A stretch of 45,170 bases of DNA from an uncultured Selenomonadales bacterium. Lineage in GTDB: Bacteria; Bacillota; Negativicutes; Selenomonadales; Selenomonadaceae. The DNA lies in NCBI GenBank assembly GCA_946547205.1, contig CAMNPA010000001.1, positions 1-45,170 of the forward strand, in the 5' to 3' direction. A program made the position numbers and the translations under genes. Positions 161 through 23,180 of this stretch are shown here, piece after piece. The stretch's first letter is position 1; the number at the start of each line of letters is the position of its first letter. The notes below the pieces were generated by a model that worked only from the letters and a program-made list of their open reading frames with translations, searched no databases and was not told the origin of the DNA.

Positions 161-991
161 ATGAACAAAGATTATCGATTGGTCTTGTTGAATGAAACTG
201 CGTATTATCCGAAACTTCCTTGGGAAATTTTGTCGTACGGCGAAGATTTGCTGGAATTTATGAATTCGGGAGCGGTCTCGGAGAAAAGTTTTGTTTATGA
301 CGACGACTTTCAGTATCTGCTCGTTAATATGAAGTTCATTGAGCTTTTGGGCTATAAATCGATGACGGAATTCGCCAGGGAGCAAAATAATTCGTCGTTG
401 GCAAACATAAACGAGGCTGACAGAGCCGGTTACGTCGAATATCTTAAGAAACGCTACGAAAATAATTTGATCGGACGCGATGCGGTCGGAGAGTGTCAAC
501 CTTCAAGCACATATTACGTGAGTTATCGGCTGAAGTCGCCGTATTTGGTCGAGGAAGTTCGTGTTTTGGAATGCGGCAACTTTTTCACGCAGAACGGTCG
601 CACGACAATAAATTCTTTCGTGTTGAATCTCAACGAGGCTGAAAAGATCTCTGCGAATCAGAAATTTAATTCTTCGGTTCGCGAAGATTGCGGAATTCAC
701 ATCAAACAGAACGTCATAATTTATCCGCGCAGTCACAGAATCAAAATCGACAGTAAAATTATAGCGTTGACGCCGTTTGAAGGCGAGATATTCCTTGTGT
801 TGCTTGACAATCTGAATCGGCCTGTCATGCCGAAGAAAATTTACGAAACGATCTACAAAAATTCTTCAATGCACATTACGAGCAACGTCTTGCCAATGCA
901 TATCAGCAACATTCGCCGAAAACTGAGCTTTTGCAAAGATTTAATTCAAATTGTTTTCGTCAAAGCCGGCGGTTATTGCCTGCGAATGTGA
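161..991 (+). CDS. Transcriptional regulator: PAS-like N-terminal region plus C-terminal OmpR/PhoB-type winged-helix DNA-binding domain, no receiver domain
   Basis: The C-terminal ~90 aa (IALTPFEGEIFLVLLDNLNRPVMPKKIYETIY...HISNIRRKLS...IVFVKAGGYCL) has the trans_reg_C pattern (LTP.E..L...L......V......I........N.L..HI..LR.KL). The N-terminal FQYLLVNMKFIELLGYKSMTEF is PAS-like. First ATG is at 161. The ORF is open back to position 2 (GTG), so a longer form cannot be excluded. No clear Shine-Dalgarno. Confidence 0.6.
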   Translation: MNKDYRLVLLNETAYYPKLPWEILSYGEDLLEFMNSGAVSEKSFVYDDDFQYLLVNMKFIELLGYKSMTEFAREQNNSSLANINEADRAGYVEYLKKRYENNLIGRDAVGECQPSSTYYVSYRLKSPYLVEEVRVLECGNFFTQNGRTTINSFVLNLNEAEKISANQKFNSSVREDCGIHIKQNVIIYPRSHRIKIDSKIIALTPFEGEIFLVLLDNLNRPVMPKKIYETIYKNSSMHITSNVLPMHISNIRRKLSFCKDLIQIVFVKAGGYCLRM

Positions 992-2188
992 GACGTCGGC
1001 TTTTTTTGTCGTCAAAAGTTCTCCGCGAAAAGCCCGCGCCAATATCGATTTCTTCATCAGCTCGATACGCTCCAAAGTTTTTGTTGCAAGGTCTTTCGTC
1101 CGCTGTTCACGACCAAGCAAGTCGTCGAGCAGTCGGACGATTTCTTTTTGTTCGTCAAGCGGCGGCAGATTTATCGACGTGCCAAGAAATTCATCTTTTC
1201 TTATCGACGGAGAGTTGTCGCCTCTCATGAATTGCATCAAATAATTTATCGTTCCGTCGTAGCACAAAAATTGATAGAGAAATTTTGGCGATAATCCTTC
1301 CTTACATCTGCAAACAAAAAATCCTGTCGAGGCGATACAATCTTTTAAATCGTCGTCGATGAAGGCGATATTCTTCAGATAAGGTCTGACCATTGAAAAT
1401 AAGATGTTTCTTGATTCGACAGCGCGACTTGCTCGGCTCGGAGCTTCAATAGTTTTGATTATTTTCGGTGCTCTTACGGTTTGTCGCTCATTGTCAATCG
1501 AATCAATATCAATGTAACGAAAAGTTTCGCCAGTAGGACGTTTAGTTTGCATTGGCAAAAGCAGTTCCGACAAAAATTTTTTCTGCCAGGTGTCGAGAGT
1601 GAAGCCGTGTTCGTCGCGCCAAAGCTTGGTTAGTTCGCCGGCAAAAGCTTTGTGAAGGATAGCTGCCCGCCGAAGTTCCGAGCCGTCGACGACCGCTTGA
1701 GCCAGTGCCTTAGCCTCGTCGAGCTTGGCAAACAGTTCGTCGAGCAAAGAAACAATGCGTTGCTGTTCGTTGAGTGGCGGCAGCGGGATTTCAGTTTCTT
1801 TAAAAGGCTTCAAAGTTATGTGCACCATTCCGGAGCCGTGTGCTTTTTCGTAAAGATGATTGGTTATAAACGTTAGGTAATAATACAGGTACGATTTTTC
1901 GACACCGTTATTAGGAACAACTTTGAATATGTGTTGATTTAACCAAGCGTCTTCACCTTGCCAAATGTACGCGCCTAAAGTTGCTGACCATGAAAAGAGC
2001 AAGTCGCCTCTTGTCACTGAAAATTTTTCGTCGTAGTTTTTTGTTGTTCTATTGCAAATCTCGCTAGAGTTTGTGAGATTTTGAATGCGAATTATCGGTT
2101 TTCCGATTTTTTCCCATTCATTCGGCTTAAAAGCCCTGCCGTTTATGTATTTGGCAACAGAACCAAGTGTACTAATCTTGTCAGTCAT
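941..2188 (-). CDS. hsdS: Type I restriction-modification specificity subunit
   Basis: Two variable target-recognition halves, each followed by the conserved HsdS helix: LPPLNEQQRIVSLLDELFAKLDEAKALAQ...ILHKAFAGELT and LPPLDEQKEIVRLLDDLLGREQ...SILARAFRGELL. ATG at 2188 overlaps the hsdM stop (ATGACTGA). The ORF-track start at 2311 is an in-frame extension inside hsdM. Confidence 0.85.
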   Translation of the reverse strand: MTDKISTLGSVAKYINGRAFKPNEWEKIGKPIIRIQNLTNSSEICNRTTKNYDEKFSVTRGDLLFSWSATLGAYIWQGEDAWLNQHIFKVVPNNGVEKSYLYYYLTFITNHLYEKAHGSGMVHITLKPFKETEIPLPPLNEQQRIVSLLDELFAKLDEAKALAQAVVDGSELRRAAILHKAFAGELTKLWRDEHGFTLDTWQKKFLSELLLPMQTKRPTGETFRYIDIDSIDNERQTVRAPKIIKTIEAPSRASRAVESRNILFSMVRPYLKNIAFIDDDLKDCIASTGFFVCRCKEGLSPKFLYQFLCYDGTINYLMQFMRGDNSPSIRKDEFLGTSINLPPLDEQKEIVRLLDDLLGREQRTKDLATKTLERIELMKKSILARAFRGELLTTKKADVSHSQAITAGFDENNLN

Positions 2189-3596
2189 TATTTGCCTCCA
2201 GTGCACGCAACTTGTTGACGACGCCTTGAAGTAAATCGACAGCCTCTTGAAGGTCGTCAATCGCATCTTCGCCCAGTTCAATCGGATCGGGCAAGTCGTC
2301 AGCGTCAACAATCGAATCGTCGCGAATCAAGCCGAGGTCGAGCGAATTATTTTTTTCTGCAATCTGTTCCCGCGTGAAGACATTAAAGCGTTCGTCGTTG
2401 ACTGCGCGGCGGTCATCAGCCTCAAAAGCTTTTTCAAAATCGGTGAAGTGTTCGCGACGGAGCGGATTGGTCTTTCCAAAAGAAGGCATATTCGTCCGCA
2501 AGTCGTAAAACCAAACTTCGCGTGTTTTGTTTTCGTCAGTGGTGCCGCGAGAGAAGAACAGGACATTGGTCTTGACGCCTTGCGCGTAAAAAATTCCAGT
2601 CGGCAGTCTCAAAATCGTATGCAGGTTGCATTTGTGCATGAGGTCGACGCGAATTTTTTCACCGTCTCCGTCGGCAAAAAGAACGTTGTCGGGCAGAATG
2701 ACTGCTGCGCGTCCGCCGGGCTTGAGACTGCGATAAAAATGTTGCAGGAAGTTCAACTGCTTATTGCTCGTCGGAAAAGTGAAGTCGTCGCGGGTAGCTC
2801 GTTCGCCGCCTTTTTTAGTTCCGAATGGCGGGTTGCTCAAGATGAGATCGAAATTTTTCATGGACTTGCCGACTTCGCTGAGAGTGTCGCCCAAAATAAT
2901 TTTGCCGTCGAGCCCGTGCAACATTGCATTCATCAGCGCGAGGCGATGAGTATCGTGGACGAGTTCGCAACCGGTAAAGGCTTGAGTCTTCTCAAAATTC
3001 TTTTCCGCCTCCGACAAGTCAAAGAAATCATCGGTATGGTCGCGGACATATTGAGCGGCGGCTATCATGAAGCCGAAGGTTCCGCAAGCAGGGTCGTTGC
3101 AACGTTCGCCCGCCGTCGGTTTCATCAGCCGAACGATAACATCAATCAGCGCACGTGGAGTAAAGTATTGACCTGCGCCGGATTTTTTCTCGTTAGCGTT
3201 CTTTTCGAGAAGCCCTTCATAAAGGTTGCCGAGACCTTCTTCCCGCGCTGAATACCAGTCAAGAGCATCGATACTGGCAATAATTTTTTCAAGATTCTTT
3301 GGCTCGTCGATGTTTGTGGACGCGCCTTGATAAATTTCGCGGATACGTCCCGTACAATTTTCACCGAGATGATTCAGCAACGCCTTGTAAAATTTTTTGA
3401 GTTCAATGCCGCTCTTAGTCGAAAGATTTTCCCAGCGATAACCTTTAGGGATTTTATCTTCGGCACCAGTCTCTGACGCCATTTTGAGGAATAGGATATA
3501 AGTCAGCTCGGTAACGTACTGATGATAAGTGATGCCGTCGTCGCGCAGGACGTTGCACAAATTCCAGAGCTTGCCGACAATTTCTTGAGTGTTCAC
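2181..3596 (-). CDS. hsdM: Type I R-M N6-adenine DNA methyltransferase subunit
   Basis: HsdM N-terminal pattern MNTQEIVGKLWNLCNVLRDDG, SAM-binding motif NDPACGTFGF, catalytic NPPFG (LILSNPPFGTKKGG). GTG start overlaps the hsdR stop (GTGA). Confidence 0.95.
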   Translation of the reverse strand: MNTQEIVGKLWNLCNVLRDDGITYHQYVTELTYILFLKMASETGAEDKIPKGYRWENLSTKSGIELKKFYKALLNHLGENCTGRIREIYQGASTNIDEPKNLEKIIASIDALDWYSAREEGLGNLYEGLLEKNANEKKSGAGQYFTPRALIDVIVRLMKPTAGERCNDPACGTFGFMIAAAQYVRDHTDDFFDLSEAEKNFEKTQAFTGCELVHDTHRLALMNAMLHGLDGKIILGDTLSEVGKSMKNFDLILSNPPFGTKKGGERATRDDFTFPTSNKQLNFLQHFYRSLKPGGRAAVILPDNVLFADGDGEKIRVDLMHKCNLHTILRLPTGIFYAQGVKTNVLFFSRGTTDENKTREVWFYDLRTNMPSFGKTNPLRREHFTDFEKAFEADDRRAVNDERFNVFTREQIAEKNNSLDLGLIRDDSIVDADDLPDPIELGEDAIDDLQEAVDLLQGVVNKLRALEANND

Positions 3597-6217
3597 GCGA
3601 CATCTCCTCCGTCGTCATAAAGATAGCGATTCAGTTCGTCAAGGATATTAGCCAGCTTGCCGCCAAAAACCTTGTCAATACGTTTGAAGCCGCCCGCGTC
3701 CTTGAAGTGACTGCCCGTCTCGTCGAACACTGCGGGATTTATCAAAGACTCGCGGCGCAAAAATTTTTCGATACGGTCAAGCCATTTCAATTCGGTTGAA
3801 GAAAAATCATGAGCGGCTTTCAATCGGTCGACGGCATTTGAAATTTTATCGGCGTGATTGACGAGTTGAGCACCAATCGCATAACGACGAATCAAGCTAA
3901 TAATATCGGCAGTGATTTCGACGTTGGACAGCTGAGAAATTGCGGCGTTGAGTTGGTCGGCAGTAAAATTTTTTTCACTCAAGGCAAGACGCAAGCTCTT
4001 TAAGTCGGCGCGAGTCAAATCCTTCGGACGCGTGCAAACGATATTTAGCGCGGCAATTTCATTCCGATTCGTCGTAATAAATTTGGTGAACTCGTCAAGA
4101 TAATCTTGCGGTCGTTTACCTTCACCAAAATCGACTTCGTGAGCTGTCAGAAAATCTTCGTGCTCGGAAATGACAAACGTCCTGCCATGAGAAATTTTTT
4201 CTTGCAAAGAATCCGCATGACTTAGCAGAAAATCTCTGGCGTCGTGTGCGGTCAAAGTTTTGAGCGTGTCAATGAGTTCTTTTGTAGTATCGTCGAGGTT
4301 GCGACGGCGAAGCCTTGCGATAATTTGATTGACAAGATTTTGAACAGCTTTATCGTCGTCAAGATTTTTCAAGTTGTCAAGCAGCTGAGTAAAGGTCACC
4401 GACGAATTGGCGACGACAGGTTTCATTTCGCTGACAGGTTCGAGGGCTTCATAAATTCCAACTGCGTCAAAGATTCTGAAATGAGTTTTGCCAATGTCGG
4501 GACAAAGGCGGGTTGCACGACCAAGCATTTGTTCAAAAAGGATACGAGATTTGACGTGCCTCATAAAAACGAGTGTGTCAATCGCGGGCACGTCAATACC
4601 GGTCGTAAGCAAATCAACAGTCACTACAATATTCGGATAGCGTTCGTTTTTAAAGCGTCGTATGGCGTCCAGAACACGTTCCTTATCGCCAATGATTCCC
4701 GTGATTTTTGTAATGGCTTCATTGCTTATGCCACGCGCAGTGTAAATGTCTTTGAGAATCTGAACGATTAAATCGGCGTGCATGTCGCTCACGGCAAAAA
4801 TCAACGTCTTGCCGGAGCCTTCAGGGTCGATGTAATTTGAAATTTCCTTCAGCACTACGCGATTAAAATTCTCGTTGACGACTTGCCGATTGAAATTGTC
4901 AATATCAAAATCCAGCTCGTCGGCAAGCAGTTCGCTGACAAGTTCGCCGGTTGCAGTGTCGCACATCGTGACGGTCTCGCCGCGCCTGTAGTGAATGCCG
5001 CTTTCGGAAAGTTGCGTTTTCAAACGGTGCGGCGGGTCGTGGTCGACGAGATGACCGTCAACGACAGCCTCGCGGTAAGTGTACTTGAAAGCCGGCTTGC
5101 CAAAAATTTCAGTGGTGTGTAAAGCAGGCGTGGCAGTCAGCGCGATTTTCACGGCGTCAAAATATTCAATGACGGCGCGATATTTGCTTTGATAGTCGCT
5201 TTGGTCTTTGAATAAAATTTCATCGTCGGCAAGTTCACGATCGAGGATATAGCCACGATGTGCCTCGTCGATAATTATCAAGTCGTAATCCGTTACACCA
5301 GGAATAAAATCTTCACCGTAAAGAATTCTTTTGACCATGCTTTGAACGGTAGCAATTTGCAAGCGAGTTTCTTTGCCGAAAGTCTTGTCGCCGAGTTTGT
5401 TGACGTTGTAGATTTTATCGAGTGGCAATAAATCTTCGAGCTTGACGGTGGCGAAAACATCTTGAGCTTGTTCGCCGAGTGAATTCCTGTCGACGAGAAA
5501 CAAAATCCGGCGAAAACGCTCTGCCTTCAAGAATCGGTAAATCATTCCGAGGACAGTTCGCGTCTTGCCGGTGCCTGTCGCCATCGCGACTAAAATATTT
5601 TTCCGTCCGTCAAGAACAGCTTTTTCAACTGCTTGAACGGCTTTTATCTGGTAGTCGCGCAGATTTAATCCGTCATCGTCGCGCAACAAATCAAACGACA
5701 AACTTTGCAGCGTATCGTTGCCCGCCGAAATATCGCGTTCGAGCAGTTCAAGAATTCCCGTCGGACTTATCCAGCCGCGCAGGGCTTTTGGCGCGTTGTC
5801 AGGTTTACGCAAATCAAGAAACCAAATGCCGGATTTTGTTTCGAGCTGTTGGTTATAAGGTCTGCCATTAGTCGCGAAGACGAAAGGAACTTTAAAGCCG
5901 CACCAATCATCGAGCCGATAAATTTTATCTTCGTCGCGAAAAGTTCGCGAATATTCTTTGCACTGGCAATCAATGACGGCAGGAATGTCTTTATAACTCG
6001 CCTTAGCCTCAATCGTAGCAATCATTTTCGTCCCGACGAACAGTGCATAATCAACAAAGCCGCTGTCTGTCTGCCATTCAGCAATGGCAATGTTGCGCCC
6101 GTTTTGCGGACGAATGCCTTTGGAGTAGCGAAGATTTTCAGTATTGACATCCCAGCCGAATTTTCTAAGCTGCGCGTCGATAATTTTGCGCGTCTCGGAT
6201 TCATTTGACATAATCAT
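3593..6217 (-). CDS. hsdR: Type I restriction enzyme R subunit (nuclease/DEAD-box helicase), EcoEI-R-like C-terminus
   Basis: N-terminal PD-(D/E)xK-like region (ETRKIIDAQLRKFGW, VDYALF...IATIEAKA). Helicase motif I VAMATGTGKTRT, motif II LIIIDEAHRG. C-terminal tail resembles the EcoEI R C-terminal domain. The ATG at 6217 (or 6211) lies inside the last codons of the upstream phosphatase gene (ATGATTATGTCAAATGA). Confidence 0.95.
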   Translation of the reverse strand: MIMSNESETRKIIDAQLRKFGWDVNTENLRYSKGIRPQNGRNIAIAEWQTDSGFVDYALFVGTKMIATIEAKASYKDIPAVIDCQCKEYSRTFRDEDKIYRLDDWCGFKVPFVFATNGRPYNQQLETKSGIWFLDLRKPDNAPKALRGWISPTGILELLERDISAGNDTLQSLSFDLLRDDDGLNLRDYQIKAVQAVEKAVLDGRKNILVAMATGTGKTRTVLGMIYRFLKAERFRRILFLVDRNSLGEQAQDVFATVKLEDLLPLDKIYNVNKLGDKTFGKETRLQIATVQSMVKRILYGEDFIPGVTDYDLIIIDEAHRGYILDRELADDEILFKDQSDYQSKYRAVIEYFDAVKIALTATPALHTTEIFGKPAFKYTYREAVVDGHLVDHDPPHRLKTQLSESGIHYRRGETVTMCDTATGELVSELLADELDFDIDNFNRQVVNENFNRVVLKEISNYIDPEGSGKTLIFAVSDMHADLIVQILKDIYTARGISNEAITKITGIIGDKERVLDAIRRFKNERYPNIVVTVDLLTTGIDVPAIDTLVFMRHVKSRILFEQMLGRATRLCPDIGKTHFRIFDAVGIYEALEPVSEMKPVVANSSVTFTQLLDNLKNLDDDKAVQNLVNQIIARLRRRNLDDTTKELIDTLKTLTAHDARDFLLSHADSLQEKISHGRTFVISEHEDFLTAHEVDFGEGKRPQDYLDEFTKFITTNRNEIAALNIVCTRPKDLTRADLKSLRLALSEKNFTADQLNAAISQLSNVEITADIISLIRRYAIGAQLVNHADKISNAVDRLKAAHDFSSTELKWLDRIEKFLRRESLINPAVFDETGSHFKDAGGFKRIDKVFGGKLANILDELNRYLYDDGGDVA

Positions 6218-7421
6218 TTTCTTTGAAAGCCGACTGTTTTAAGAGCGCGGAGCAGCCGATAAAAATTTCTTTAAAAGTTTTACGATAGTCGCCGTCCGGA
6301 AAAGGATCGTCGACGTTAAACGCGCGCCCGTCTAAGTCTGTGAAGAGCCGAATTTTATTTTCAGGGTCGCCGCCGCAAATTTTCTTTGCCTGTCGCAACA
6401 TGTATTCATCGAGAGCGATAACACATTTGAATTTGCGATATTCTTCTGCGGTGAATCGTTTGGAAACGTGTTTGTCGAACGGAATGTTTTTTTCGCGCAG
6501 AACGTCGCGAGCCTTTCCGCTCATGGATCCGCCGCCGCGAGTGTTGCAGCCTGCAGAGTCGACGAAAATTTTTTCCGACAAATTATTTTGCTTGAGCAAG
6601 TGACGCATGATGTATTTTGCCATAGGCGAGCGACAAGAATTTCCTGAACAAACAAATAGGATACTGTCAATCTGCGCGGCATCGCTCTGCCAAAGTTCGC
6701 CGCTTAAAATGTCGACGCAAGAAAGTTGCCCGTCTTCTTTGGCATGAGTGTCGAGCATTAAAATATTTCTGCCGGGAATTTTGAGCGGAAGATTGAGATT
6801 GTATTTTTCCGAGCTGCCAAAAATTTTCTTCGGGCTCTTGTGTCCGACGACGATGACTGCCCTGCCCGAATAGTCGCGATAAAAATTTTTAAGCTTGGGA
6901 TGATCGAGCAGATAAGTTTTCGTTTGAGCGTCAAGCGGCGCGTTCACATTAACTCCTGCGTGACAGAAGAAATATTTTCGTCCGCCGATCGTAATTGAAT
7001 GACACAGCGGCAAATTCGTCAGGAAGTCGTAAATCTCTTGCGGGAAGTACGACTCCTTAAGCGCGACTGTCTTTATATCGCGGGCAACTCCTCTGTTTGC
7101 TCGTGACATTTTGCCGTCGTTGTCGAAGAGATGATAAATGTACGTTTCATCGACATTGCCGCGCAGAAAGATTATATTTTTCTTCTTCCTGTGCTCAAGA
7201 ATCCAATGCAGCGTCTCAATGTTTTTGTCGCCCAAGCCGTAAAGATAATCGCCCAAAAAAATTACAAGGTCGTCGTCGGTAACAGAAATTTTTTTCCAAA
7301 GCGAAGTCAGCTTGTCGAAGGCGGCATGAACGTCGCCGATTGCCAAAATTCTTTTGTAGGGCGAATCGTTTTTGGACGGAATAATTTCGTCGGCGTTGTT
7401 GATGAATTTTTTCTCGGTCAT
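6201..7421 (-). CDS. Fusion protein: divergent calcineurin-like (PPP/lambda-type) metallophosphoesterase domain plus C-terminal low-molecular-weight protein-tyrosine phosphatase domain
   Basis: The N-terminal half keeps the PPP scaffold, but key motifs are altered: GDVHA (GDxHG), GDYLYGLG (GDxxDRG), GNVDE (GNHE). CHAG and VVGHK are retained. The C-terminal half has a perfect LMW-PTP P-loop VCSGNSCRSPMA (CxGNxCRS) and a downstream DDPFPDG (DP loop). RBS GAAGGAG lies 9 nt before the ATG at 7421. The track start at 7439 is a TTG inside that RBS. Confidence 0.8.
   Translation of the reverse strand: MTEKKFINNADEIIPSKNDSPYKRILAIGDVHAAFDKLTSLWKKISVTDDDLVIFLGDYLYGLGDKNIETLHWILEHRKKKNIIFLRGNVDETYIYHLFDNDGKMSRANRGVARDIKTVALKESYFPQEIYDFLTNLPLCHSITIGGRKYFFCHAGVNVNAPLDAQTKTYLLDHPKLKNFYRDYSGRAVIVVGHKSPKKIFGSSEKYNLNLPLKIPGRNILMLDTHAKEDGQLSCVDILSGELWQSDAAQIDSILFVCSGNSCRSPMAKYIMRHLLKQNNLSEKIFVDSAGCNTRGGGSMSGKARDVLREKNIPFDKHVSKRFTAEEYRKFKCVIALDEYMLRQAKKICGGDPENKIRLFTDLDGRAFNVDDPFPDGDYRKTFKEIFIGCSALLKQSAFKENDYVK
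7332..7373. repeat. Near-identical nucleotide patch shared by the two phosphoesterase paralogs
   Basis: 7332-7373 matches 9429-9470 at 41 of 42 positions by eye (gtcgccgattgccaaaattcttttgta[g/a]ggcgaatcgttttt). It encodes KNDSPYKRILAIGD in both genes. Confidence 0.8.
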
Positions 7422-7435
7422 TTTTACGCACTCCT

Positions 7436-8641
7436 TCAAAAAATTTTACCTTCGCCGGTCAAGTCGGAAAGTTTTTTTTCGGCGAAAGTGTTGCCAAGTT
7501 CGGCGGCTTTGCGATAAAACTCAAGAGCTTTTTTTATGTCCGGTTCGAGAGAGCCGCAACCTTCCTCGTAAATCTCGGCGATGTCGTAAATAATGCTGCT
7601 GTCGGGACGTTCTTCCTTCGCAAGCTTCTTTGTCAAGAATTCCAAGAGCTTTTCTCCGTCAGCTTTGAAATTGGCTCCGCCGTTGCGATAAATCTTGGCG
7701 ACATCAATATAAGCCCAACTGTCGCCGTATTCATCAGCTTTTAGAAAATATTCAAGAGCTTTGGGAATGTCGTTGAGCTTGAAATAAATTTGAGCGACGA
7801 TCTTAAAAGACTCGGCAATTTCATTCTTAGTGATGAAAAGAAAATCATCTTCCTCATCGGTTATGCTGTTGCATTTCTTCTGCGCATACTCCAGAAAATA
7901 GCCAATGAGCTTGTGCCCGTAAACTTCGATGTCAATTTTCTCCTCGTTATAAAGTTCTTTCAGCCAATGAAACGCACAAAGATAGCCGCGCTCAATCGCT
8001 TGGATCAGATATTCAACGGCGCGTCGTCCGTCGATTTGCACAGAGCCGCAACCTTTGGCGTAGATGTCAACGATTCTGAACAATGCCGTACTTTCAAAGT
8101 GCACCTTATTTTTCCCGCCGAGCAATTCAATTTCATCCAATCGTTCATAAAGCGCAAGAGCCTTTTGACCGTCGGGAAGAACGCCGCATTTTCCGCAGCG
8201 ATAAATTTCGGCAATTTGCTTGTATGCGTTTTTGAGACGACTTTCGCTCCGATCGAAAAAGCGTTTGAGAATTCCCGGGTAGTTTTGCTCAACGTCTTCA
8301 TTGCTTGCGACAAAATTTTTCGTAAGCTCAATGGCTTTGTTAATCCCTTCGAGTGTCTGCGCGAGATATTCGAGAGCTTTGTAGCCGTCGGGCTGAACAC
8401 CGCCTTTGCCTTCAAGAAAAATTTCGGCGATCTCTTTCGGCATTGTGAAGTTGCAAATTTTTTCCACTGCGTCAAAATATTCGTTGGCTTGATTCATGTC
8501 GTCGTAACCGCTTTGAAAATATCTTGCAGTGATTTCGTCGAAAGTCTTGCCTATGTCGAGATTGCTCATGGCGCGAGTATTGCCGTTTTCTGCAAGCCGA
8601 TTTGTTTTCCATGAAAGATCACTCCTCTCCAAAATTTTCAT
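7436..8641 (-). CDS. Sel1-like repeat (SLR/TPR-fold) protein
   Basis: Several ~36-aa repeats of one pattern: IAEIFLEGKGGVQPDGYKALEYL, IAEIYRCGKCGVLPDGQKALALY, IVDIYAKGCGSVQIDGRRAVEYL, VAKIYRNGGANFKADGEKLLEFL, IAEIYEEGCGSLEPDIKKALEFYRKAAELGN. Start is uncertain: ATG at 8641 overlaps the upstream gene end by 23 nt, and ATG at 8569 is the alternative. The track start at 8758 is a TTG inside the upstream gene. Confidence 0.7.
   Translation of the reverse strand: MKILERSDLSWKTNRLAENGNTRAMSNLDIGKTFDEITARYFQSGYDDMNQANEYFDAVEKICNFTMPKEIAEIFLEGKGGVQPDGYKALEYLAQTLEGINKAIELTKNFVASNEDVEQNYPGILKRFFDRSESRLKNAYKQIAEIYRCGKCGVLPDGQKALALYERLDEIELLGGKNKVHFESTALFRIVDIYAKGCGSVQIDGRRAVEYLIQAIERGYLCAFHWLKELYNEEKIDIEVYGHKLIGYFLEYAQKKCNSITDEEDDFLFITKNEIAESFKIVAQIYFKLNDIPKALEYFLKADEYGDSWAYIDVAKIYRNGGANFKADGEKLLEFLTKKLAKEERPDSSIIYDIAEIYEEGCGSLEPDIKKALEFYRKAAELGNTFAEKKLSDLTGEGKIF
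8363..8434. repeat. Conserved nucleotide patch shared by two SLR paralogs
   Basis: 8363-8434 versus 9982-10053: about 65 of 72 positions identical by eye. Both encode EIAEIFLEGK[G/A]GV[Q/E]PDGYKA[L/I]EYL. Confidence 0.7.
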
Positions 8642-9527
8642 CAGACTGCCAATATTGCCCGCTGATGATGTCCACGGCAGAAATGCGACTGCGCCAAGAG
8701 CCCGTGTCCAACATGAGAATATTTCTGTTCGGCACGGCAAAAGGTCTGGTGTTGTCAAAAATTTCTTTCGGATTCATGTAGTCGACCAAAAATTTATCTT
8801 CAAGCGTCATCAGCACGGCACCATCTTTATCGCGTGTTGAAAGCGTCTGTGTCGGCGTGTGTCCCACGACGATTATTTCTTTGCCGTTGTAGCCTCTGGT
8901 TCTATGAAAAAATTCCTTGCGAATCCAAATCAAATCATCAACTGTCTGATCTTCAAGCGCGACGGTTGGTCTAACTCCTGCGTGACAAAAAAAATACGTC
9001 CTGCCGTCAACTTCAATCGTATAGCTCAGATCCAAATTCTTAATGAAGTTCAAGAACTCGTCAACGATAAATTCGTTTTTCCGTCGAAGTTTAAGCAAGG
9101 CGTTAATGGTTTTGTCGCCGCCGTTGAGCACCCACAAAGCCGCATCCACATATTCCTTGACATCTCGATTAGTGAATCGATCTTTCTCGCCGCTAAAAAT
9201 CTTGTCCAGCAACTCGCGATCGTTCTTAAAGGCGTCAACCAACATAAGCTCATGATTGCCGGCAAGGAACACGAAATTTTTTTTGGTCTGTTGCTCAATC
9301 AACCATTCCAGAGTTTCAGCGACATTATATCCGCGATCAATATAATCGCCGTGGAAGATACACAAATCATCATCAGCCACGTTGAGTTTTTTCCATAACG
9401 ACATGAGCTTATACCAACAGCCATGTATGTCGCCGATTGCCAAAATTCTTTTGTAAGGCGAATCGTTTTTTTGTGGAATGAGATTTTCCATGCCGCCAAG
9501 GAAATTTTTAGTTGTATAATTTTCCAA
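8619..9527 (-). CDS. PPP-family (lambda phosphatase/ApaH-like) Ser/Thr metallophosphoesterase, motifs intact
   Basis: GDIHGCWYKL, GDYIDRG, GNHE, CHAG and VVGHTP are all present. Start is ambiguous. TTG at 9527 sits 9 nt after AAGGAG. ATG at 9491 and GTG at 9620 (track start) are alternatives without a good RBS. Confidence 0.8.
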   Translation of the reverse strand: MENYTTKNFLGGMENLIPQKNDSPYKRILAIGDIHGCWYKLMSLWKKLNVADDDLCIFHGDYIDRGYNVAETLEWLIEQQTKKNFVFLAGNHELMLVDAFKNDRELLDKIFSGEKDRFTNRDVKEYVDAALWVLNGGDKTINALLKLRRKNEFIVDEFLNFIKNLDLSYTIEVDGRTYFFCHAGVRPTVALEDQTVDDLIWIRKEFFHRTRGYNGKEIIVVGHTPTQTLSTRDKDGAVLMTLEDKFLVDYMNPKEIFDNTRPFAVPNRNILMLDTGSWRSRISAVDIISGQYWQSDENFGEE

Positions 9528-9657
9528 ATGATTTCTCTCCTTTATAAAGCTTGCGATGTTATTTTTGTTGAGGTGTTTCCTCAAATACTTGGCGTCTAAA
9601 ACACTCGACAATTTTATCACAAATATGAGCGGCGACCACTGAATCTGTAGAAAATTT

Positions 9658-10830
9658 TTACACGATTCCTGCGCGGCTTAATTCTTTAAGTTTCATTTTG
9701 GCGCACCAATATTCCAGCTTTGCGCTCTTTCGATAGAAGTCAATCGCTTTGTGCATGTCGGGAGCGACAAAGCCGCAACCTTCCTCGTAAATATTTCCGA
9801 GTTCATAAAAAGCTTCGTCCGGTTCACTTATTTCGGCGAGCTTGGTTAAGCATTCAACGGCTTTATGACCGTCTTGAGTGACGCCGCCTTTACCGTTTCG
9901 CCAAATATCGGCAAGAACTTTCAGCGCATCGGACGGACTGACAAAAAAATTATTCGTTTCGTTACGTTCAATTATCTCTGTGAGATATTCAATGGCTTTG
10001 TAGCCGTCGGGCTCCACACCGGCTTTGCCCTCAAGAAAAATTTCGGCGATCTCCTTAAGTTTTTCAGTGTCATCTTTGGCAAGCTCCGATAAGTATTCGA
10101 CAGCTTTGTAGCCGTCGGGAACGACTCCAATTTTGCCTTCAAGGTAAAGTCGAGCGGCGTTTTCAAGAGCCTCTTTATAATTTTGGAGTCCTGAACTTTC
10201 TATCCCGAAGTCACGATTAACCTTAGCCCAATATTTGCCGTGACGAATCATTTCCTCATAAATTTCAAGCGCGCGTCGTCCATCGGCTTTAAACTTACCG
10301 CAACCTTCCGTGCAAATTTCAGCAATGCTCATCAGTGCCTGCTTATCGTCAAGCGCGTCGAGTTTCTCATAAAATTCAATGGCTCTGTAACCGTCGGCTT
10401 TTAGACCGCCCAAGCCTTCACGAAACATTTCAGCCGCAAACTTAAAACCGTTTTTGTTACCGTGCTCGGCAGCTTTGATGAAAAGTTCCAAGGCTTTTTG
10501 TCCGTCCTGTTTAAAATTTTGCTTGCCGTCGCGATGAAATTCAGCCAATCGAATTGACGCAAGATCGTCATCGAGTTCAACGGCTTGAATTAAAAATTTC
10601 AAAGCCTGCTGCGGCGATCGTTCGACTTCACAAAATCCGTTGAAGTAAACTTCCGACAGCTCATACAAGGCGCGGGCTTGCGAATGCAGTTGTTCGGGGT
10701 CTCTGTTCGTTGCAAACTCTTTGAGCTTTTGCAGAGCGTCTTTGTCGCCGTCGCGAACTTTCTTGCCTAAATCTCCCGAAAGAGAATCACCGTCGCTGTA
10801 AGTTGTTTTTCCGTCGCTGTAGGTAATCAT
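9658..10830 (-). CDS. Sel1-like repeat protein (paralog of 7436-8641)
   Basis: Same repeat type: LAEFHRDGKQNFKQDGQKALELFIKAAEHGN, AAEMFREGLGGLKADGYRAIEFY, IAEICTEGCGKFKADGRRALEIY, IAEIFLEGKAGVEPDGYKAIEYL, LGNIYEEGCGFVAPDMHKAIDFYRKSAKL. RBS AAAGGAG lies 8 nt before the ATG at 10830. The track start at 10848 is a TTG. Confidence 0.8.
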   Translation of the reverse strand: MITYSDGKTTYSDGDSLSGDLGKKVRDGDKDALQKLKEFATNRDPEQLHSQARALYELSEVYFNGFCEVERSPQQALKFLIQAVELDDDLASIRLAEFHRDGKQNFKQDGQKALELFIKAAEHGNKNGFKFAAEMFREGLGGLKADGYRAIEFYEKLDALDDKQALMSIAEICTEGCGKFKADGRRALEIYEEMIRHGKYWAKVNRDFGIESSGLQNYKEALENAARLYLEGKIGVVPDGYKAVEYLSELAKDDTEKLKEIAEIFLEGKAGVEPDGYKAIEYLTEIIERNETNNFFVSPSDALKVLADIWRNGKGGVTQDGHKAVECLTKLAEISEPDEAFYELGNIYEEGCGFVAPDMHKAIDFYRKSAKLEYWCAKMKLKELSRAGIV

Positions 10831-10905
10831 CTTGTTTGCTCCTTTCAAGAAAAAGAACGTGCCGAAAAATTTTTTGACCTTTCGACACGCTCAACATATT
10901 TTTTA

Positions 10906-12276
10906 TCAATCGTTATCGTTCAATTTTTTTCGCCACTCGGCGGCTTTAACTTTGTCTTGCGGAATTCCTTCGCCTAACTCGTACATCCACATAATTTTTT
11001 TGACTGCCTCGCGATGATAAGGCGTCCTGCCGTCACCTTGAGTAAAAGTTTTCTCGTAGAAATTCAGAGCCTTGACGAAATTTTGGCGCACACCTTCGCC
11101 GAGAAAGTAAGCGTCCGCGACTTTGTAAATAGCTTTTGGGATTGAGCGAACCGATTCATAATCTACGACTCTTTCAAGACCGCCGGCAACTTTGTAACGT
11201 TCAAAAGTCTCGGCAGGATCTTCGCGACAAACTTCGCCATCCTCCGACATTTTGGCGGCGTAATAGCGGGCAACGCTGTTGAAACGAAACGGGCTGAAAT
11301 GTCCGAAGTTTTCCCGCGTCCAAGCAATTTCCGAGAAGTTCTTAAACGCTTGCGGCAAATCTTGTTTGGTGCCGAGTCCGCGATAGATCATGAGCGTCAT
11401 TTTGATTTTCGCCATATTGTAGCCGAACTTTGCGGCGCGACTGTACCATTTGAACGCCTCAGCGTAGTCTTGCTCAATTTTGTTCTCGCCGATATAAAAA
11501 ACGTCGCCGATAATTGACATTGCCGCGACTGCCCACGAGTTTTGTCCGGTTTTCTTTTTGGTGCGAGCAGCTTTCTTGTACCATTTCAACGCGCCGACGA
11601 AATCATTTTTAAGAACGAACTCTTCAGCCATTCTGACCATTGCCATTGGGGAAGATTCGGCGGCTTGTTCCATCCAAGAACTTTCGCCGGTGATTTGAGC
11701 AATTTCCATTCTCGCCGAGTTCTCGTCATCTCTGTCAAGTTTGGCAAGCCACTCTTCGGCTTTGGCAATGTCTTTTTCCGTTCCGCGTCCGCAAGCATAA
11801 TTAATTGCCGTCTGCTTGATTGAATCCTGTTTATTCAATCCGGGCTTATCCAATTCAGCGGAAAGTTTGTACCATTTAAATTTATCTTCAGGGTCGTCCG
11901 AGATATAAGCTGTCACTCGCATCGCTTTAGGGTCGCCGGCTTCCGCGCCTCTGCGATACCAAATTTTGTATTCTTCGCCTTGCCAATTTCTTTCCGTGCC
12001 AATGCCGTCGTAAATTCGCCGAGCGGTTTCGGTCATTGATTCGGCGTCTCCTGCCTCTGCCGCCATACGATAATATTTGTAAGCCTTAGCCTCAAGTTCA
12101 GGGTCTTCTTTTGTTCTCGGCACCTTCAAAACTTCTTCAAGAGTTTGAACGGGAATAACATCGCCGACTTTATCTTCCAAAGCTCCTTTTGATCTTTGCG
12201 TATAAAAATTCGCAAGCGTCTTCATTGCAGACACATCGCCGGACTCGGCGGCTTGAATCAAATCTTTTTCGTTCAT
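10906..12276 (-). CDS. Sel1/TPR repeat protein
   Basis: Classical Sel1 signatures: YKYYRMAAEAGDAESM, WYRRGAEAGDPKAMR, ALKWYKKAARTKKK, AFKWYSRAAKFGYNMA, ALNFYEKTFTQGD. RBS GAAGGAG upstream of the ATG at 12276. Confidence 0.8.
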   Translation of the reverse strand: MNEKDLIQAAESGDVSAMKTLANFYTQRSKGALEDKVGDVIPVQTLEEVLKVPRTKEDPELEAKAYKYYRMAAEAGDAESMTETARRIYDGIGTERNWQGEEYKIWYRRGAEAGDPKAMRVTAYISDDPEDKFKWYKLSAELDKPGLNKQDSIKQTAINYACGRGTEKDIAKAEEWLAKLDRDDENSARMEIAQITGESSWMEQAAESSPMAMVRMAEEFVLKNDFVGALKWYKKAARTKKKTGQNSWAVAAMSIIGDVFYIGENKIEQDYAEAFKWYSRAAKFGYNMAKIKMTLMIYRGLGTKQDLPQAFKNFSEIAWTRENFGHFSPFRFNSVARYYAAKMSEDGEVCREDPAETFERYKVAGGLERVVDYESVRSIPKAIYKVADAYFLGEGVRQNFVKALNFYEKTFTQGDGRTPYHREAVKKIMWMYELGEGIPQDKVKAAEWRKKLNDND

Positions 12277-12300
12277 GATTAACGACTCCTTCCAATGAGT

Positions 12301-12864
12301 TTAAATTTTTTCAACCTGGCTGACATCCAAATCAACGGACATATTTCCAACCAAAACTTTGAGACGTTGCTTAGTATCATCGATACTTTTTACAATCCCA
12401 ATCTGATTTTCAAACGTGCCCTCTATAATCCGCACATTGTCATTGACCTTAAAGCCTTGAGTGTCGTCGCCAATACGTCTGTCAATCAAATCATTCAGAA
12501 TCCGTTCGGCTTCTTCTTTGCTCAACGGAATAGGATTTTTATCAACTCCGACAAAGCCCGTGACGTTAGTTGTATTGCGCACGATAAACCAAGAATTTGC
12601 ATCGACAATCATATCGACAAGAACATAGCCCGGAAAAATTTTTTTCTTGACGACTCGTCGCTTGCCGTTCTTAAACTCGGACTCTTCGCACATTGGCACG
12701 ATAACATCAAAGATAACATTTTCAAGCCCTTGCGCTGCGATTTTTTTCTTAAGCGCGTCTCTAACCGTATTTTCGCGACCGGAATAAGTTTTGACAAAAT
12801 ACCAAGCACGTTCAGAAGTTCTCTCCAATTCAGGAAGACTTTTCTTTTTGCTTGTCTTATTCAT
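12301..12864 (-). CDS. NusG-family transcription elongation/antitermination factor, probable specialised paralog
   Basis: NGN domain (AWYFVKTYSGRENTVRDALKKKI, IFPGYVLVDM, NVTGFVG) and KOW motif (FKVNDNVRIIEGTFENQIGIVKSID...LKVLVGNMSVDLDVSQVEKI). RBS AAAGGAG lies 7 nt before the ATG at 12864. Flanked by Sel1 genes, not by secE/rplK. Confidence 0.8.
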   Translation of the reverse strand: MNKTSKKKSLPELERTSERAWYFVKTYSGRENTVRDALKKKIAAQGLENVIFDVIVPMCEESEFKNGKRRVVKKKIFPGYVLVDMIVDANSWFIVRNTTNVTGFVGVDKNPIPLSKEEAERILNDLIDRRIGDDTQGFKVNDNVRIIEGTFENQIGIVKSIDDTKQRLKVLVGNMSVDLDVSQVEKI

Positions 12865-12876
12865 TATGTGCTCCTT

Positions 12877-13371
12877 TCAGTTCTCGGCTAAAAGTTTGCG
12901 AATACGCGCGGCAATTCTTCGACGCTCAACCGCTTGCAGATATTCCCATGTGCACTCATTGTGGCGACGCGTCTGAAATACCATCGTCCTTGCAAAAATA
13001 TTTCCGCGATCAATCAGATAAATTTCGTTATACGTCTTGTCAATCAGATTCAGAATAAAGTTGAGCGTGTCCTTATCATTTTTCGGAACGCCGTAACCTT
13101 GTTCTGCCATCTCCAAAATATTTTGCATTGACTCTTCGTCGAGAAAAGTTTCCGCCAGCTCTTTATACAAGGCAAGAGATTTTTCATAGTCGCCATTTCC
13201 GCGCAGAAGGTCAGCAAGTTCTTTCATCGCATCAAAATTTTTTGTCGTCGCCGATTTTGCCAGCCACTCGACATAGTTTTGCTGATCTCCTTCCGTCCGA
13301 TAAATGTTTGCGAGTTTGTACATGCAATCGCCGTCACCGTCTTGCGCCCAATGAATCAATTTTTCTTTCAT
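12877..13371 (-). CDS. Small Sel1/TPR-like protein, first gene of the NusG-led operon
   Basis: 164 aa. MYKLANIYRTEGDQQNYVEWLAKSATTKNFDAMKELADLL and YEKSLALYKELAE are Sel1/TPR-like. RBS GGAGG precedes the ATG at 13371. The stop at 12877 abuts the NusG RBS. Confidence 0.55.
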   Translation of the reverse strand: MKEKLIHWAQDGDGDCMYKLANIYRTEGDQQNYVEWLAKSATTKNFDAMKELADLLRGNGDYEKSLALYKELAETFLDEESMQNILEMAEQGYGVPKNDKDTLNFILNLIDKTYNEIYLIDRGNIFARTMVFQTRRHNECTWEYLQAVERRRIAARIRKLLAEN

Positions 13372-13556
13372 GATTGTTTGCCTCCGTTCTTTTAATGAAA
13401 TTGTTTTCTTGAGTATTTCAACTCCGCCGGTATTTTATCTAAGCCGCCGTCGGTCGCTGTATCGGATTCTCGGCGTCTCCGCTTAATCTCCCGATACCGA
13501 GGTCTTTCTGTACTCATTTGCAGTTTTCAAGGATCATTTGTGAATCCGCAATGCGA

Positions 13557-13565
13557 AGTATAGCA
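13557..13565 (-). promoter_or_regulatory. Candidate extended -10 promoter (TGCTATACT) for the NusG-led operon
   Basis: Minus-strand TGCTATACT (TGnTATACT) lies just downstream of the terminator at 13589-13627 and about 185 nt upstream of the ATG at 13371. No good -35 element was seen. Confidence 0.35.
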
Positions 13566-13588: not shown

Positions 13589-13627
13589 AAAAAAAATAGC
13601 CGACTGCATGTTTTGATAGCGGTCGGA
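13589..13627 (-). terminator. Rho-independent terminator after the WYL-Sel1 gene pair
   Basis: Minus-strand RNA CCGACCGC-UAUCAAAACAU-GCAGUCGG (8-bp stem, one mismatch) followed by CUAUUUUUUUU. It begins 18 nt after the stop at 13645. Confidence 0.6.
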
Positions 13628-13644: not shown

Positions 13645-14250
13645 TTAGCTTTCAATGTGAAGCTCCGCAAGTTCTTCAAGCTTTGTGGCGGCAAAGGCGT
13701 TTCCTTTTTGAGCAGCCAAGAAATACCAATGCTGCGCTTGTTCGTAATCCTGCGCGACAATTTCGCCGGTCTCGTAAATCGAACCGAGCTTGCACATTGC
13801 AATTACGTTGCCGTTGCGTGCCGCCTTGGTGTAATAATCGAGAGCGCGTTCATTGTCGATGTCCACGCCGTAGCCATACTCATACATTTCAGCCATACGA
13901 AACGCCGCGTTGACGTTGCAGCCGCAGCTGAACGCAAAAGAATACAAACCGAATGCTCTGGAATAATTTTGCTCGACGCCGCGACCGTAGAAATACATTT
14001 CGGCAAGAGTGTATACCGCCGGGGCATCACGCAAAAAAAATAAAGGCGAACGGTCAAGCCAACAAGCCGCCTTTTCGTAATCAACTTCCGTACCGATGCC
14101 GTTGTAGTACATCAAGCCGACTTGCGTTATCGCTTTGCTGTTGCCGAGTTGAGCCGCTTTAATGTAATGAGCAAGCGCATTTTCAAAATCTCCGGCGAAA
14201 TAATACTTGTCGGCAATTGAAAGCTCTCGAACACCTTTTCTGTCTGACAT
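13645..14250 (-). CDS. Sel1 repeat protein
   Basis: Textbook Sel1 repeats: ALAHYIKAAQLGNSKAITQVGLMYYNGIGTEVDYEKAACWL, ...ALDYYTKAARNGNVIAMCKLGSIYETGEIVAQDYEQAQHWYFLAAQKGNAFA. The ATG at 14250 is preceded by AGGAG. The track start at 14361 lies inside the upstream gene. Confidence 0.85.
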   Translation of the reverse strand: MSDRKGVRELSIADKYYFAGDFENALAHYIKAAQLGNSKAITQVGLMYYNGIGTEVDYEKAACWLDRSPLFFLRDAPAVYTLAEMYFYGRGVEQNYSRAFGLYSFAFSCGCNVNAAFRMAEMYEYGYGVDIDNERALDYYTKAARNGNVIAMCKLGSIYETGEIVAQDYEQAQHWYFLAAQKGNAFAATKLEELAELHIES

Positions 14251-18122: not shown

Positions 18123-18307
18123 TCGCTCTCGTCCTCCATAAATTTAAATTTTCTCGCGGCTGATACAGAATCCAATTCCTCTAAGTCAAGTTCACGGTCA
18201 AATTCGCGCCGGGCTTTCCGCACCGATAAAATCCTGCGCAATAATTCTTCGCGAACTCGGCTTAAACTCGCAAAGTTGATTCTTTTTAGTTCTTCCTCGA
18301 CGTTCAT
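18119..18307 (-). CDS. Small charged hypothetical protein (62 aa) between the RsbW-like and STAS genes
   Basis: MNVEEELKRINFASLSRVREELLRRILSVRKARREFDRELDLEELDSVSAARKFKFMEDESE. ATGA overlaps at both ends (18304-18307 and 18119-18122) argue that it is translated. No recognisable domain. Confidence 0.45.
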   Translation of the reverse strand: MNVEEELKRINFASLSRVREELLRRILSVRKARREFDRELDLEELDSVSAARKFKFMEDESE

Positions 18308-18747
18308 GACAAGCCTGCCCTGTCGTCCGAAAGTTTCATGCCCAATTTCAAATGGTTGCAAAATAATTCGCCGTCGCGCCCGAAGTGATACGACATTTCA
18401 TCGAAGATGCGCCGCATAAACGAAATGCCAAGCCCGCCGACTTTCGCCGACTCCAAGTCAGAAGGTTTTTCCTTAATCTCTTCTTTCAAGAGCGGATTAA
18501 ACGGCTCGCCGCTGTCTTTCAGCTCAATGAAGAAATGTTCAGCCTCGCGATACGCACGAATCGAAATTTCTCCGACTTCACTTCCCGTGTAAGCGTAGTT
18601 GATGATGTTCGACGCCGCTTCTTCAAAGCCCAACTCCAAATAAATCTGCTTGTCGTCGGGAACGCCTGCCTTTTCTGCCGACTCCATCACGAAATCCAGC
18701 ATCGAATAATATTCCTCGCGTGTTGCAGGAAATTTTTGCCATTTCAT
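18304..18747 (-). CDS. Anti-sigma regulatory factor-type Ser/Thr kinase (RsbW/SpoIIAB-like, HATPase_c_2)
   Basis: 147 aa. N-box-like EEAASNIINYAY, DSGEPFNP, and the ATP-lid GGLGISFMRRIFDEMSY. Confidence 0.85.
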   Translation of the reverse strand: MKWQKFPATREEYYSMLDFVMESAEKAGVPDDKQIYLELGFEEAASNIINYAYTGSEVGEISIRAYREAEHFFIELKDSGEPFNPLLKEEIKEKPSDLESAKVGGLGISFMRRIFDEMSYHFGRDGELFCNHLKLGMKLSDDRAGLS

Positions 18748-21704: not shown

Positions 21705-21717
21705 TGAAAATTCCGCC

Positions 21718-23112: not shown

Positions 23113-23180
23113 TTCTTCACCTTGTCTGAAAAAAAAGGCAGGACTATTATTAATCCCGCCAAACAAATTTCTTTTTTTCG

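Follow-up and report, generated by a model that had tools for sequence, protein, structure and literature searches.

The window analyzed here is a 45,170-nt stretch of DNA from an uncultured Selenomonadales bacterium (contig CAMNPA010000001.1, positions 1 to 45,170), in which ten co-directional genes join Sel1-like repeat (SLR) proteins, a NusG paralog and phosphatases to the type I restriction-modification (R-M) genes hsdR, hsdM and hsdS (Table 1). Our analysis suggests that these ten genes are probably two end-to-end units of different history, a Selenomonadaceae SLR/phosphatase operon (unit 1, minus strand, ~13.56 to 6.20 kb) and an ordinary hsdRMS system (unit 2), brought together by a local operon fusion rather than by a conserved partnership. 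A first-pass annotation, made from the sequence alone, had proposed that the Sel1/phosphatase genes may form an undescribed accessory module of the R-M system. These genes are indeed conserved and undescribed, but an accessory relationship to R-M is not supported.

The window was annotated from open reading frame (ORF) translations and from Pfam, NCBIfam and PADLOC-DB v2 profile searches. All ten genes of the first-pass annotation are present on the minus strand and Pfam backs every label that they had been given, and the gene calls of an ENA assembly (ERZ28612952, SHIW14-1 scaffold_1288, from a rumen-type metagenome) agree with our ORF reading. Unit 1 runs from a small SLR-fold protein (gene 1) through the NusG paralog, SLR1, SLR2, a PPP-family phosphatase and SLR3 to a protein in which a PPP-like domain is joined to a low-molecular-weight protein tyrosine phosphatase (LMW-PTP) domain, hereafter the fusion. 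From gene 1 to hsdS, the successive gene spacings are 12, 24, 75, 130, -23, 14, -17, -4 and -8 nt.

Related modules and the junction with hsdRMS

Genomic contexts of relatives were recovered at 87, 81, 75, 69, 67, 65 and 43% identity of the fusion, and further loci came from a JGI metagenome scan (30 loci) and from look-ups with the first-gene protein (L128-L134). tblastn with the window proteins revealed a recurring core consisting of the small SLR protein, SLR1, a hairpin and SLR2, followed by a distal part with variable SLR, LRR_5 and PPP genes that usually ends in the fusion. When HsdR, HsdM and HsdS were used as tblastn queries (E<=1e-6), no match was obtained in any of 37 loci, and none of ~10 distinct downstream contexts of related modules carries hsd genes according to tblastn and Pfam gene tables. 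The first-pass annotation had itself stated that an accessory role would fall if orthologous modules were not associated with defence genes, and on that ground these ~10 contexts argue against the role. In L002, the other NusG-bearing locus, the fusion is followed by a ~600-nt gap and then by an unrelated ORF.

Most downstream neighbours of related modules are housekeeping genes. The contexts comprise PHO4 (L090), IF-2B/aldolase (L093/L099), rplS (L008), cbiA/cobU (L132), GLUG/flgI (L010) and an M48-TPR peptidase with a glycosyltransferase (L113/L114). In L005 (11505-15914), L103 (2483-6756), L106 (1903-6246) and L107 (2909-7252), a convergent gene pair lies directly past the module and precedes serS/aspS; it encodes a ~1,100-aa protein of PF05183, a eukaryotic-type RNA-dependent RNA polymerase family, and an unknown protein of 320-360 aa. 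L094 (11209-19670) carries a DUF3102 gene, then a D5_N/Toprim primase, an AAA_15 ATPase and a T1RH-like_C fragment, a second instance of mobile/defence-like DNA flush against the module end. In L108 (2368-4049), a co-directional gene for a Hanks-type Ser/Thr kinase lies ~1 kb downstream of the fusion homolog and is the only kinase gene observed near any module copy.

As the first-pass annotation had pointed out, the hsdR ATG (6217) of the window is contained in the 3'-terminal codons of the fusion gene (stop at 6201), which gives a 17-nt overlap in ...AAATGATTATGTCAAATGA. DNA similarity between the window and L090 runs to the L090 stop codon, which corresponds to window 6237, and that between the window and L002 ends at 6299; DNA homology to relatives ends 20-80 nt ahead of the hsdR ATG. 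The fusion ORF of the window extends ~12 codons past the ancestral stop (...QSAFKENDYVK), with the hsdR start within the extension, and in L094 it is a DUF3102 gene that overlaps the fusion 3' end, by 34 nt. Because homology ends at the original fusion stop, the overlap looks like a by-product of a recombination junction. Moreover, the fusion gene has roughly double the synonymous divergence of its neighbours in the comparison of the window with L002 (dS 0.56 versus 0.14-0.30), a further sign that recombination took place at the hsd-proximal end of the operon. We propose that in the window lineage hsdRMS came to lie exactly at the original stop codon of the fusion, that the fusion ORF was consequently lengthened into the hsdR start, and that hsdRMS may be expressed in this strain by read-through and translational coupling from unit 1. 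The consensus scan found no promoter-like site on the minus strand from 7171 to 6217 and no terminator-like site at the junction. Since neither a terminator nor a convincing sigma-70 promoter separates the two units, hsdRMS is probably transcribed from upstream, from unit 1, in this strain.

The same features could be taken to mean that the SLR/phosphatase genes are R-M accessories, which phospho-regulate HsdR/HsdM or sense anti-restriction and whose synthesis is deliberately coupled to that of the restriction subunits. The 17-nt overlap, the lack of an obvious promoter or terminator between the units and the WYL regulator nearby are consistent with this explanation. However, the association occurs only in the window lineage, ~10 other contexts are without any hsd gene, other DNA follows the fusion in the NusG-bearing L002, homology stops at the ancestral stop codon, and a different gene takes the overlapping position in L094. 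We therefore regard this explanation as extremely unlikely. A phosphatase/SLR layer of type I restriction would, if true, be a new principle in defence biology, but the comparative evidence opposes it, and the case shows that overlapping genes at a junction are no evidence of functional coupling.

Judged from its proteins, unit 2 is a complete, ordinary type I R-M system. HsdR scores 1183.6 bits against NF008521 (cut-off 729) and 670.7 bits against PADLOC REase_I, and it has the domain set of a type I restriction subunit, with an HSDR_N nuclease N-domain, a ResIII plus Helicase_C SF2 motor and a C-terminal EcoEI_R_C domain. The HsdM N6-adenine methyltransferase and an HsdS with two target-recognition domains adjoin hsdR with overlaps of 4 and 8 nt, again as in type I systems. 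As in type I R-M systems of the HsdR PRK11448/EcoEI_R_C type, the three subunit genes overlap in the usual order, and each protein matches its family over the full length with a high score. The proteins are nothing unusual; in contrast to an ordinary system, hsdR starts here inside an unrelated upstream gene and has no evident promoter of its own. A scan of viral contigs with HsdR for the provenance of the R-M cassette gave no match.

The accessory gene prrC sits within the hsd cluster in a stable association, and its product binds the R-M complex. The window resembles such accessory loci in that non-R-M genes are physically joined to a type I hsd operon, but here seven genes lie upstream of hsd and the association is confined to one lineage. 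The hsd association conserved across relatives that would mark a PrrC-like accessory was not found.

At the other end of unit 2, the 3' end of hsdS overlaps by 51 nt (941-991) the 3' end of a convergent Trans_reg_C gene (OmpR-type DNA-binding domain), so that the right-hand border of the R-M genes is as tight as the left-hand one. In addition, ~300 nt of noncoding similarity, in inverted orientation and without an Rfam match, was observed between the parent scaffold (L001 17700-18200, ~300-800 nt past the window start) and L093 (2140-2600). In the parent scaffold it lies beyond hsdRMS and the Trans_reg_C gene, and in L093 directly after the fusion. This arrangement may be a trace of a rearrangement that brought in a ~7-kb block with hsdRMS.

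Transcription signals and the NusG paralog

A generic sigma-70 promoter and terminator consensus scan of 16 kb performed no better than shuffled sequence (23 versus 18.4 and 22 versus 23.3, respectively), and we relied only on signals that are conserved in other loci. The terminator and extended -10 element that had been reported at ~13.56 kb both exist and are conserved in related loci. The first-pass annotation had placed the WYL gene immediately upstream of the operon, but SLR0 (13645-14250), which it had missed, separates the two. WYL and SLR0 make up a unit of their own, at the end of which the conserved terminator lies.

Of all terminator-like sites in the scanned 16 kb, the strongest is internal to the operon, at 10892..10855 between SLR1 and SLR2, although no internal hairpin plus U-tract had been seen in the first-pass annotation. 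The hairpin has 16 pairs in the terminator scan and 12-14 bp in the RNAalifold consensus, and TTTTTCTT comes next. It is kept in 8 loci with almost invariant stem arms and a variable loop, and one pair of the stem forms a series of A-U, G-U and G-C across these loci, that is, compensatory changes. It is likely an attenuator older than the NusG paralog, and through it the first two genes may be expressed at a higher level than the distal ones.

The 5' leader scores 115-138 bits with covariance model R1 in the window, in two copies in L094 (3955-4088 and 5988-6122), in L093 (89-208) and in L125 (1371-1489). Its sequence hardly varies between loci in which protein identity is only ~70%, and it contains a hairpin of variable length, with a GNRA cap in its short versions. 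The leader is seen only in module copies of the WYL plus SLR0 type; in L002, a 220-aa ORF insertion takes its place. Rfam searches at gathering and permissive thresholds gave no match for the leader or anywhere in the window, and its copies, only five and too alike for covariation to be assessed, contain no compensatory pairs. The leader may act as a structured RNA or as a binding region for a regulator.

The NusG gene had been described as the leader of the operon, but it is gene 2 and is missing from most related operons. It was found only in the window and in L002/L003. tblastn detected no NusG in L005, L010, L090, L094 and L111, in which the small SLR gene is directly followed by SLR1, and the Pfam gene tables of L128-L134 list no NusG and show the same order. 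The housekeeping nusG locus is defined as a conserved secE-nusG-rplK-rplA (PMC7819879). The window gene lies outside such a locus, with SLR genes on both sides, and the secE-nusG-rplK position is held by P0133 (72% identical to the window protein) in rpmG-secE-nusG-rplK-rplA-rplJ-rplL on another scaffold of the same assembly, so the earlier designation as a paralog holds.

In sequence, the paralog remains close to its housekeeping counterparts. It scores 153 bits against TIGR00922, above the cut-off of 135.7 for the housekeeping NusG equivalog, and stays below the cut-offs for LoaP (NF033641; 81.9 bits, cut-off 125), UpxY (NF033644; 43.8 bits, cut-off 100) and RfaH (TIGR01955; 55.8 bits, cut-off 144.5). 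By these profiles, it belongs to no named specialised family. It is 68-73% identical to the 182-aa housekeeping NusGs of Selenomonadaceae, which are 81-96% identical among themselves, and its nearest relatives are four clusters at 86-96%, followed by hundreds of 182-aa NusGs at 65-73%. The lineage-specific changes concentrate in the NGN domain, where, for example, the invariant His of WYVVHT is replaced by Lys, and in the linker. Its dN/dS of 0.08 between the window and L002 is the lowest in the operon.

A poly-A run in the gene is A7 in the window (~12742-12750) and A8 in L002 (~2995-3003) and L003, where it causes a +1 frameshift. We considered whether the L002/L003 gene is a pseudogene and rejected this, because the difference is one extra A in the run and the rest of the gene has a dN/dS of 0.08. 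The difference in length could be an assembly error, or the run could be a slippage-prone tract able to switch the paralog off. These comparisons indicate that the gene is a young, selected, lineage-specific duplicate of housekeeping nusG inserted into an older operon. A paralog ~28% diverged and under strong purifying selection inside an older operon is a rare early-stage case for the origins of RfaH-, LoaP- and UpxY-like factors. 

LoaP paralogs carry transcription past the intrinsic terminators of operons that are rich in them, and for this they need a leader hairpin (PMC12691694; PMC7819879). The terminators overcome in this way are NusA-dependent. The present locus resembles the LoaP type of Bacillota, as described in PMC12691694 and by Goodson et al. 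2017 (cited in PMC7819879), in that a NusG-like gene lies in or beside the operon that it presumably serves. Hairpins in the 5' leader and an intrinsic terminator within the operon, past which transcription has to continue, are further points of likeness. In contrast to LoaP, the window gene arose recently by duplication of housekeeping NusG (~72% identity) and does not reach the family cut-off, and the operon encodes SLR proteins, PPP, LMW-PTP and hsd products rather than a polyketide, other secondary-metabolite or polysaccharide cluster. Moreover, the leader and the terminator are here older than the paralog, because both occur in NusG-less loci.

A broader likeness exists to UpxY, RfaH, ActX and TaA and to the eight NusG-SP clusters (PMC7593976, PMC7819879), namely NusG duplication, sub-functionalization and a paralog inside a long accessory operon, but the divergence of the window paralog is much younger. 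UpxY is the first gene of a capsule operon and is followed by UpxZ, whereas the window paralog is the second gene of an operon without capsule genes. As for RfaH, the leader contains a GGCGG string, but by eye its likeness to ops is only loose. Our literature search found no paper that connects NusG paralogs with Sel1. By analogy with LoaP, we infer that the paralog may act in cis as an operon-specific elongation/antitermination factor and improve read-through of the 10855-10892 hairpin.

Phosphatases, SLR proteins and the WYL regulator

The stand-alone PPP contains the canonical GDIHG, GDYIDRG and GNHE motifs and the distal His ligands, and its closest solved relative is lambda phosphatase (1G5B), followed by PP2A/PP1 and Rhilph. 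The PPP domain of the fusion has GDVHAA, GDYLYG and GNVDE at the canonical motif positions and lacks the phosphate-binding Arg of DRG and the catalytic His of GNH. It is therefore degenerate, as had been described, though every metal-ligand position is retained (D30, H32, D58, N89, H154 and H194, all six invariant in 21 family members). The LMW-PTP domain has both diagnostic features of its family, a P-loop CSGNSCRS (residues 258-265; family consensus CSGNTCRS) and an Asp loop DDPF, and its best solved relatives are the class I LMW-PTPs 2GI4, 2CWD and YfkJ (4ETM). Ser or Thr in place of Ile in the P-loop is associated with YwlE-type arginine phosphatases. An assignment of the domain to this type (CxGN[S/T]CRS) was rejected, since its overall similarity is higher to classical LMW-PTPs, and the motif is kept as a lead only.

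The fusion has 211 homologs, and every one with a source name is from Selenomonadaceae. A profile scan of species-representative genomes with the full fusion alignment, which was swamped by generic LMW-PTP matches and is not a systematic survey, yielded Quinella (L010) as the sole true full-length relative. Gene 1 is the first gene in every related operon. Its protein has 130 homologs, nearly all without a Pfam domain, and all of those with a source name are likewise from Selenomonadaceae. An AlphaFold2 model of the protein (pLDDT 92.8) shows three SLR repeats and a helical tail, and a Foldseek search of the PDB matched Sel1-repeat proteins, the nearest being Legionella LceB and LpnE, in the generic SLR/TPR fold only. 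A role like that of a type III secretion chaperone, also considered, received no support from this generic fold. SLR1 is the most conserved module protein, with 95, 84, 76 and 71% identity in L002, L094, L005 and L111 and ~31% in L010/L090. The module genes are all under purifying selection (dN/dS 0.08-0.26), and neither signal peptides nor transmembrane segments were predicted in their products.

On this basis, unit 1 is probably a self-contained Selenomonadaceae-specific operon of cytoplasmic SLR proteins, a PPP and a PPP::LMW-PTP, with its own upstream terminator, extended -10 element, leader of ~120 nt and attenuator past SLR1, and usually paired with a WYL/WCX regulator. The most economical reading of its domain content is WYL-regulated protein dephosphorylation, in which SLR proteins (and LRR proteins in relatives) may scaffold or target the phosphatases. 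The TPR-PPP protein PP5, the PP2A A-subunit and lambda-PP/PrpA-like enzymes provide a parallel, as a canonical PPP domain is here encoded with helical-repeat proteins that could target it. In contrast to these types, the scaffold and catalytic parts are separate polypeptides in unit 1, and a second, altered PPP domain is fused to an LMW-PTP. Such a family-specific, multi-context operon of cytoplasmic SLR proteins and PPP/LMW-PTP phosphatases is named by no database.

Export of these proteins as eukaryote-like effectors (SLR, LRR, PPP and PTP, as in Legionella) acting on rumen protists or other cells is another explanation. It could account for the structural closeness of the small SLR protein to LceB and LpnE, for BspA-type LRR_5 proteins in relatives and for a weak NCBIfam match to the Dot/Icm effector Wip. 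However, the structural matches reflect the generic SLR fold, the proteins have no signal peptides or transmembrane segments, no secretion genes are conserved with the module, and the type I secretion genes of the window lie ~14 kb off and were not seen near the module in the related loci examined. We consider this explanation very improbable indeed.

The WYL regulator is tied to the locus, as the first-pass annotation had suggested. Its counterparts in L094/L002 are 74-75% identical, and L010/L090 contain a divergently oriented WYL gene of 29% identity. In L002, L094 and L125, the WYL gene is co-directional with the module and is followed by SLR0 homologs. The protein has no sequence-detectable relative in the PDB. 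The arrangement resembles WYL-regulated loci of the BrxR/CapW/PafBC class, in which a WYL+WCX regulator lies upstream of or divergent from the operon that it probably controls. In contrast to those loci, the genes here match no known defence or DNA-damage system in PADLOC, and the WYL gene is co-transcribed with a Sel1 protein. Indeed, no PADLOC-DB v2 model matches the module as a system, in agreement with the first-pass annotation, which had recognised this gene combination from no named defence system, and the small SLR protein, NusG, SLR1, SLR2 and SLR3 are all without a match. Weak matches were obtained for SLR0 (PtuA, 20.7 bits), PPP (PDC-S10, 29 bits) and the fusion (PDC-S10, 16 bits), of which the PDC-S10 match to PPP spans only the generic motif region (profile positions 10-87 of 223).

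The module could also be an independent WYL-controlled anti-phage or conflict system, with SLR/LRR sensors and phosphatase effectors, that lies beside R-M by defence clustering. The WYL/WCX regulator conserved with the module, its variable repeat-protein content with LRR_5 genes inserted in some copies, the defence or mobile neighbours in the window (R-M) and in L094 (AAA_15, T1RH-like_C and primase) and the weak PDC-S10 match are consistent with such a system. On the other hand, that match is limited to the generic PPP motif region, PADLOC models match neither the SLR proteins nor the whole operon as a system, most contexts are housekeeping, and the module encodes neither an NTPase, a nuclease nor another usual effector. 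An independent defence system is unlikely, though it is the main alternative to the dephosphorylation reading, and no positive evidence was obtained for the second defence layer that the first-pass annotation had also listed. A wider interpretation, which we also hold to be rather unlikely, is that the operon represents a new WYL-controlled system for conflict/defence or phospho-signalling. It would be confined to Selenomonadaceae so far and would combine an undescribed structured leader RNA, a conserved attenuator and a newborn NusG paralog recruited in the window lineage, which would capture at an early stage the rise of a specialised NusG factor from the housekeeping gene, with read-through placing restriction under the same WYL-sensed signal.

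Our preferred interpretation, a local fusion of two units of different history, also has to be weighed against several observations that do not favour it. WYL regulators are typical of defence loci, the L094 module has mobile/defence-like neighbours, and dynamin/Leo-like genes are present in the window, 23 kb from the module. No substrate or kinase is linked to unit 1 except the Hanks kinase 1 kb downstream in L108, and both the function of unit 1 and its co-transcription with hsd are proposals from sequence. The internal terminator and the leader also occur in loci without NusG, so neither needs the paralog. Composition and codon usage do not differ between hsdRMS, the module and the rest of the window, and a foreign origin of hsdRMS is thus not shown. 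Finally, only assemblies of the window lineage (the window and ENA scaffold_1288) span the junction, and an independent, 99%-identical contig (L098) breaks ~90 nt before it. The last point is what would be expected if the junction between the module and R-M were a metagenome assembly chimera at a repeated gene family. The fusion gene is indeed a member of a family that occurs in multiple copies and strains within the same sample series (L093), and the homology of the closest relative also stops there. However, the 45,170-nt window and the 43,150-nt scaffold_1288 have different ends and both carry the junction, the reading frames are intact across it, no repeat common to both sides was found, and codon usage is uniform. 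A chimera is therefore very unlikely.

Features of the region and neighbouring genes

Table 1 Genes and signals of the minus-strand region from the WYL regulator gene to hsdS, with window coordinates
Feature	Coordinates	Strand	Evidence and remarks
WYL/WCX regulator, 424 aa	14256..15530	-	Pfam WCX 1.8e-08, WYL 3.8e-05; PADLOC WYL model 2.5e-22
SLR0, 201-aa Sel1-repeat protein	13645..14250	-	Pfam Sel1 1e-32, 4 repeats; starts 5 nt past WYL gene
Intrinsic terminator of the WYL-SLR0 unit, CCGACC...GTCGG hairpin + T8	13589..13626 (hairpin 13600-13626)	-	Conserved in L002, L094
Extended -10 element TGCTATACT	13557..13565	-	Identical in L002, both L094 copies and L125 (duplicated in L125)
5' leader element, ~119 nt	13401..13517	-	Covariance model R1
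Gene 1, small TPR/SLR-fold protein, 164 aa	12877..13371	-	130 homologs; AlphaFold2 model
Gene 2, NusG paralog, 187 aa	12301..12864	-	Pfam NusG + KOW; TIGR00922 153 bits
SLR1, 456 aa	10906..12276	-	Pfam Sel1 2.3e-27
Intercistronic hairpin + U-tract ahead of SLR2 Shine-Dalgarno sequence	10855..10892	-	Top terminator-like match; conservation
SLR2, 390 aa	9658..10830	-	Pfam Sel1 5.1e-33
PPP-family phosphatase, 302 aa, TTG start	8619..9527	-	Pfam Metallophos 2.6e-19
SLR3, 401 aa, 23-nt overlap with PPP 3' end	7436..8641	-	Pfam Sel1 1.2e-15
PPP-like::LMW-PTP fusion	6201..7421	-	Pfam LMWPc 2.2e-28, Metallophos 2.4e-16
hsdR, 874 aa	3593..6217	-	NF008521; PADLOC REase_I; Pfam HSDR_N/ResIII/Helicase_C/EcoEI_R_C
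hsdM, 471 aa	2181..3596	-	Pfam N6_Mtase 4.3e-74 + HsdM_N; PADLOC MTase_I 703 bits
hsdS, 415 aa, two target-recognition domains	941..2188	-	Pfam Methylase_S, 2 stretches; PADLOC Specificity_I 207.8 bits

Three further groups of minus-strand genes were observed elsewhere in the window. Three consecutive dynamin-family GTPase genes (36769-41983) come after the gene of an 844-aa TPR protein (34231-36765), and two of the dynamin genes have weak PADLOC matches to LeoA/LeoBC (Eleos-type; E 2.8e-11 and 5e-07). The genes at 27087-34194 and 42096-45149 encode a C39-peptidase ABC exporter, a second ABC protein, two HlyD-family proteins and a 1,017-aa RTX-repeat protein, and look like a type I secretion/bacteriocin-export cluster. 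Closer to the WYL gene, at 18304-23184, genes for a partner-switching-type HATPase_c_2 kinase, a DUF7005 protein, a dCache-HAMP-SpoIIE (PP2C) phosphatase and a radical SAM/SPASM enzyme lie in a row.

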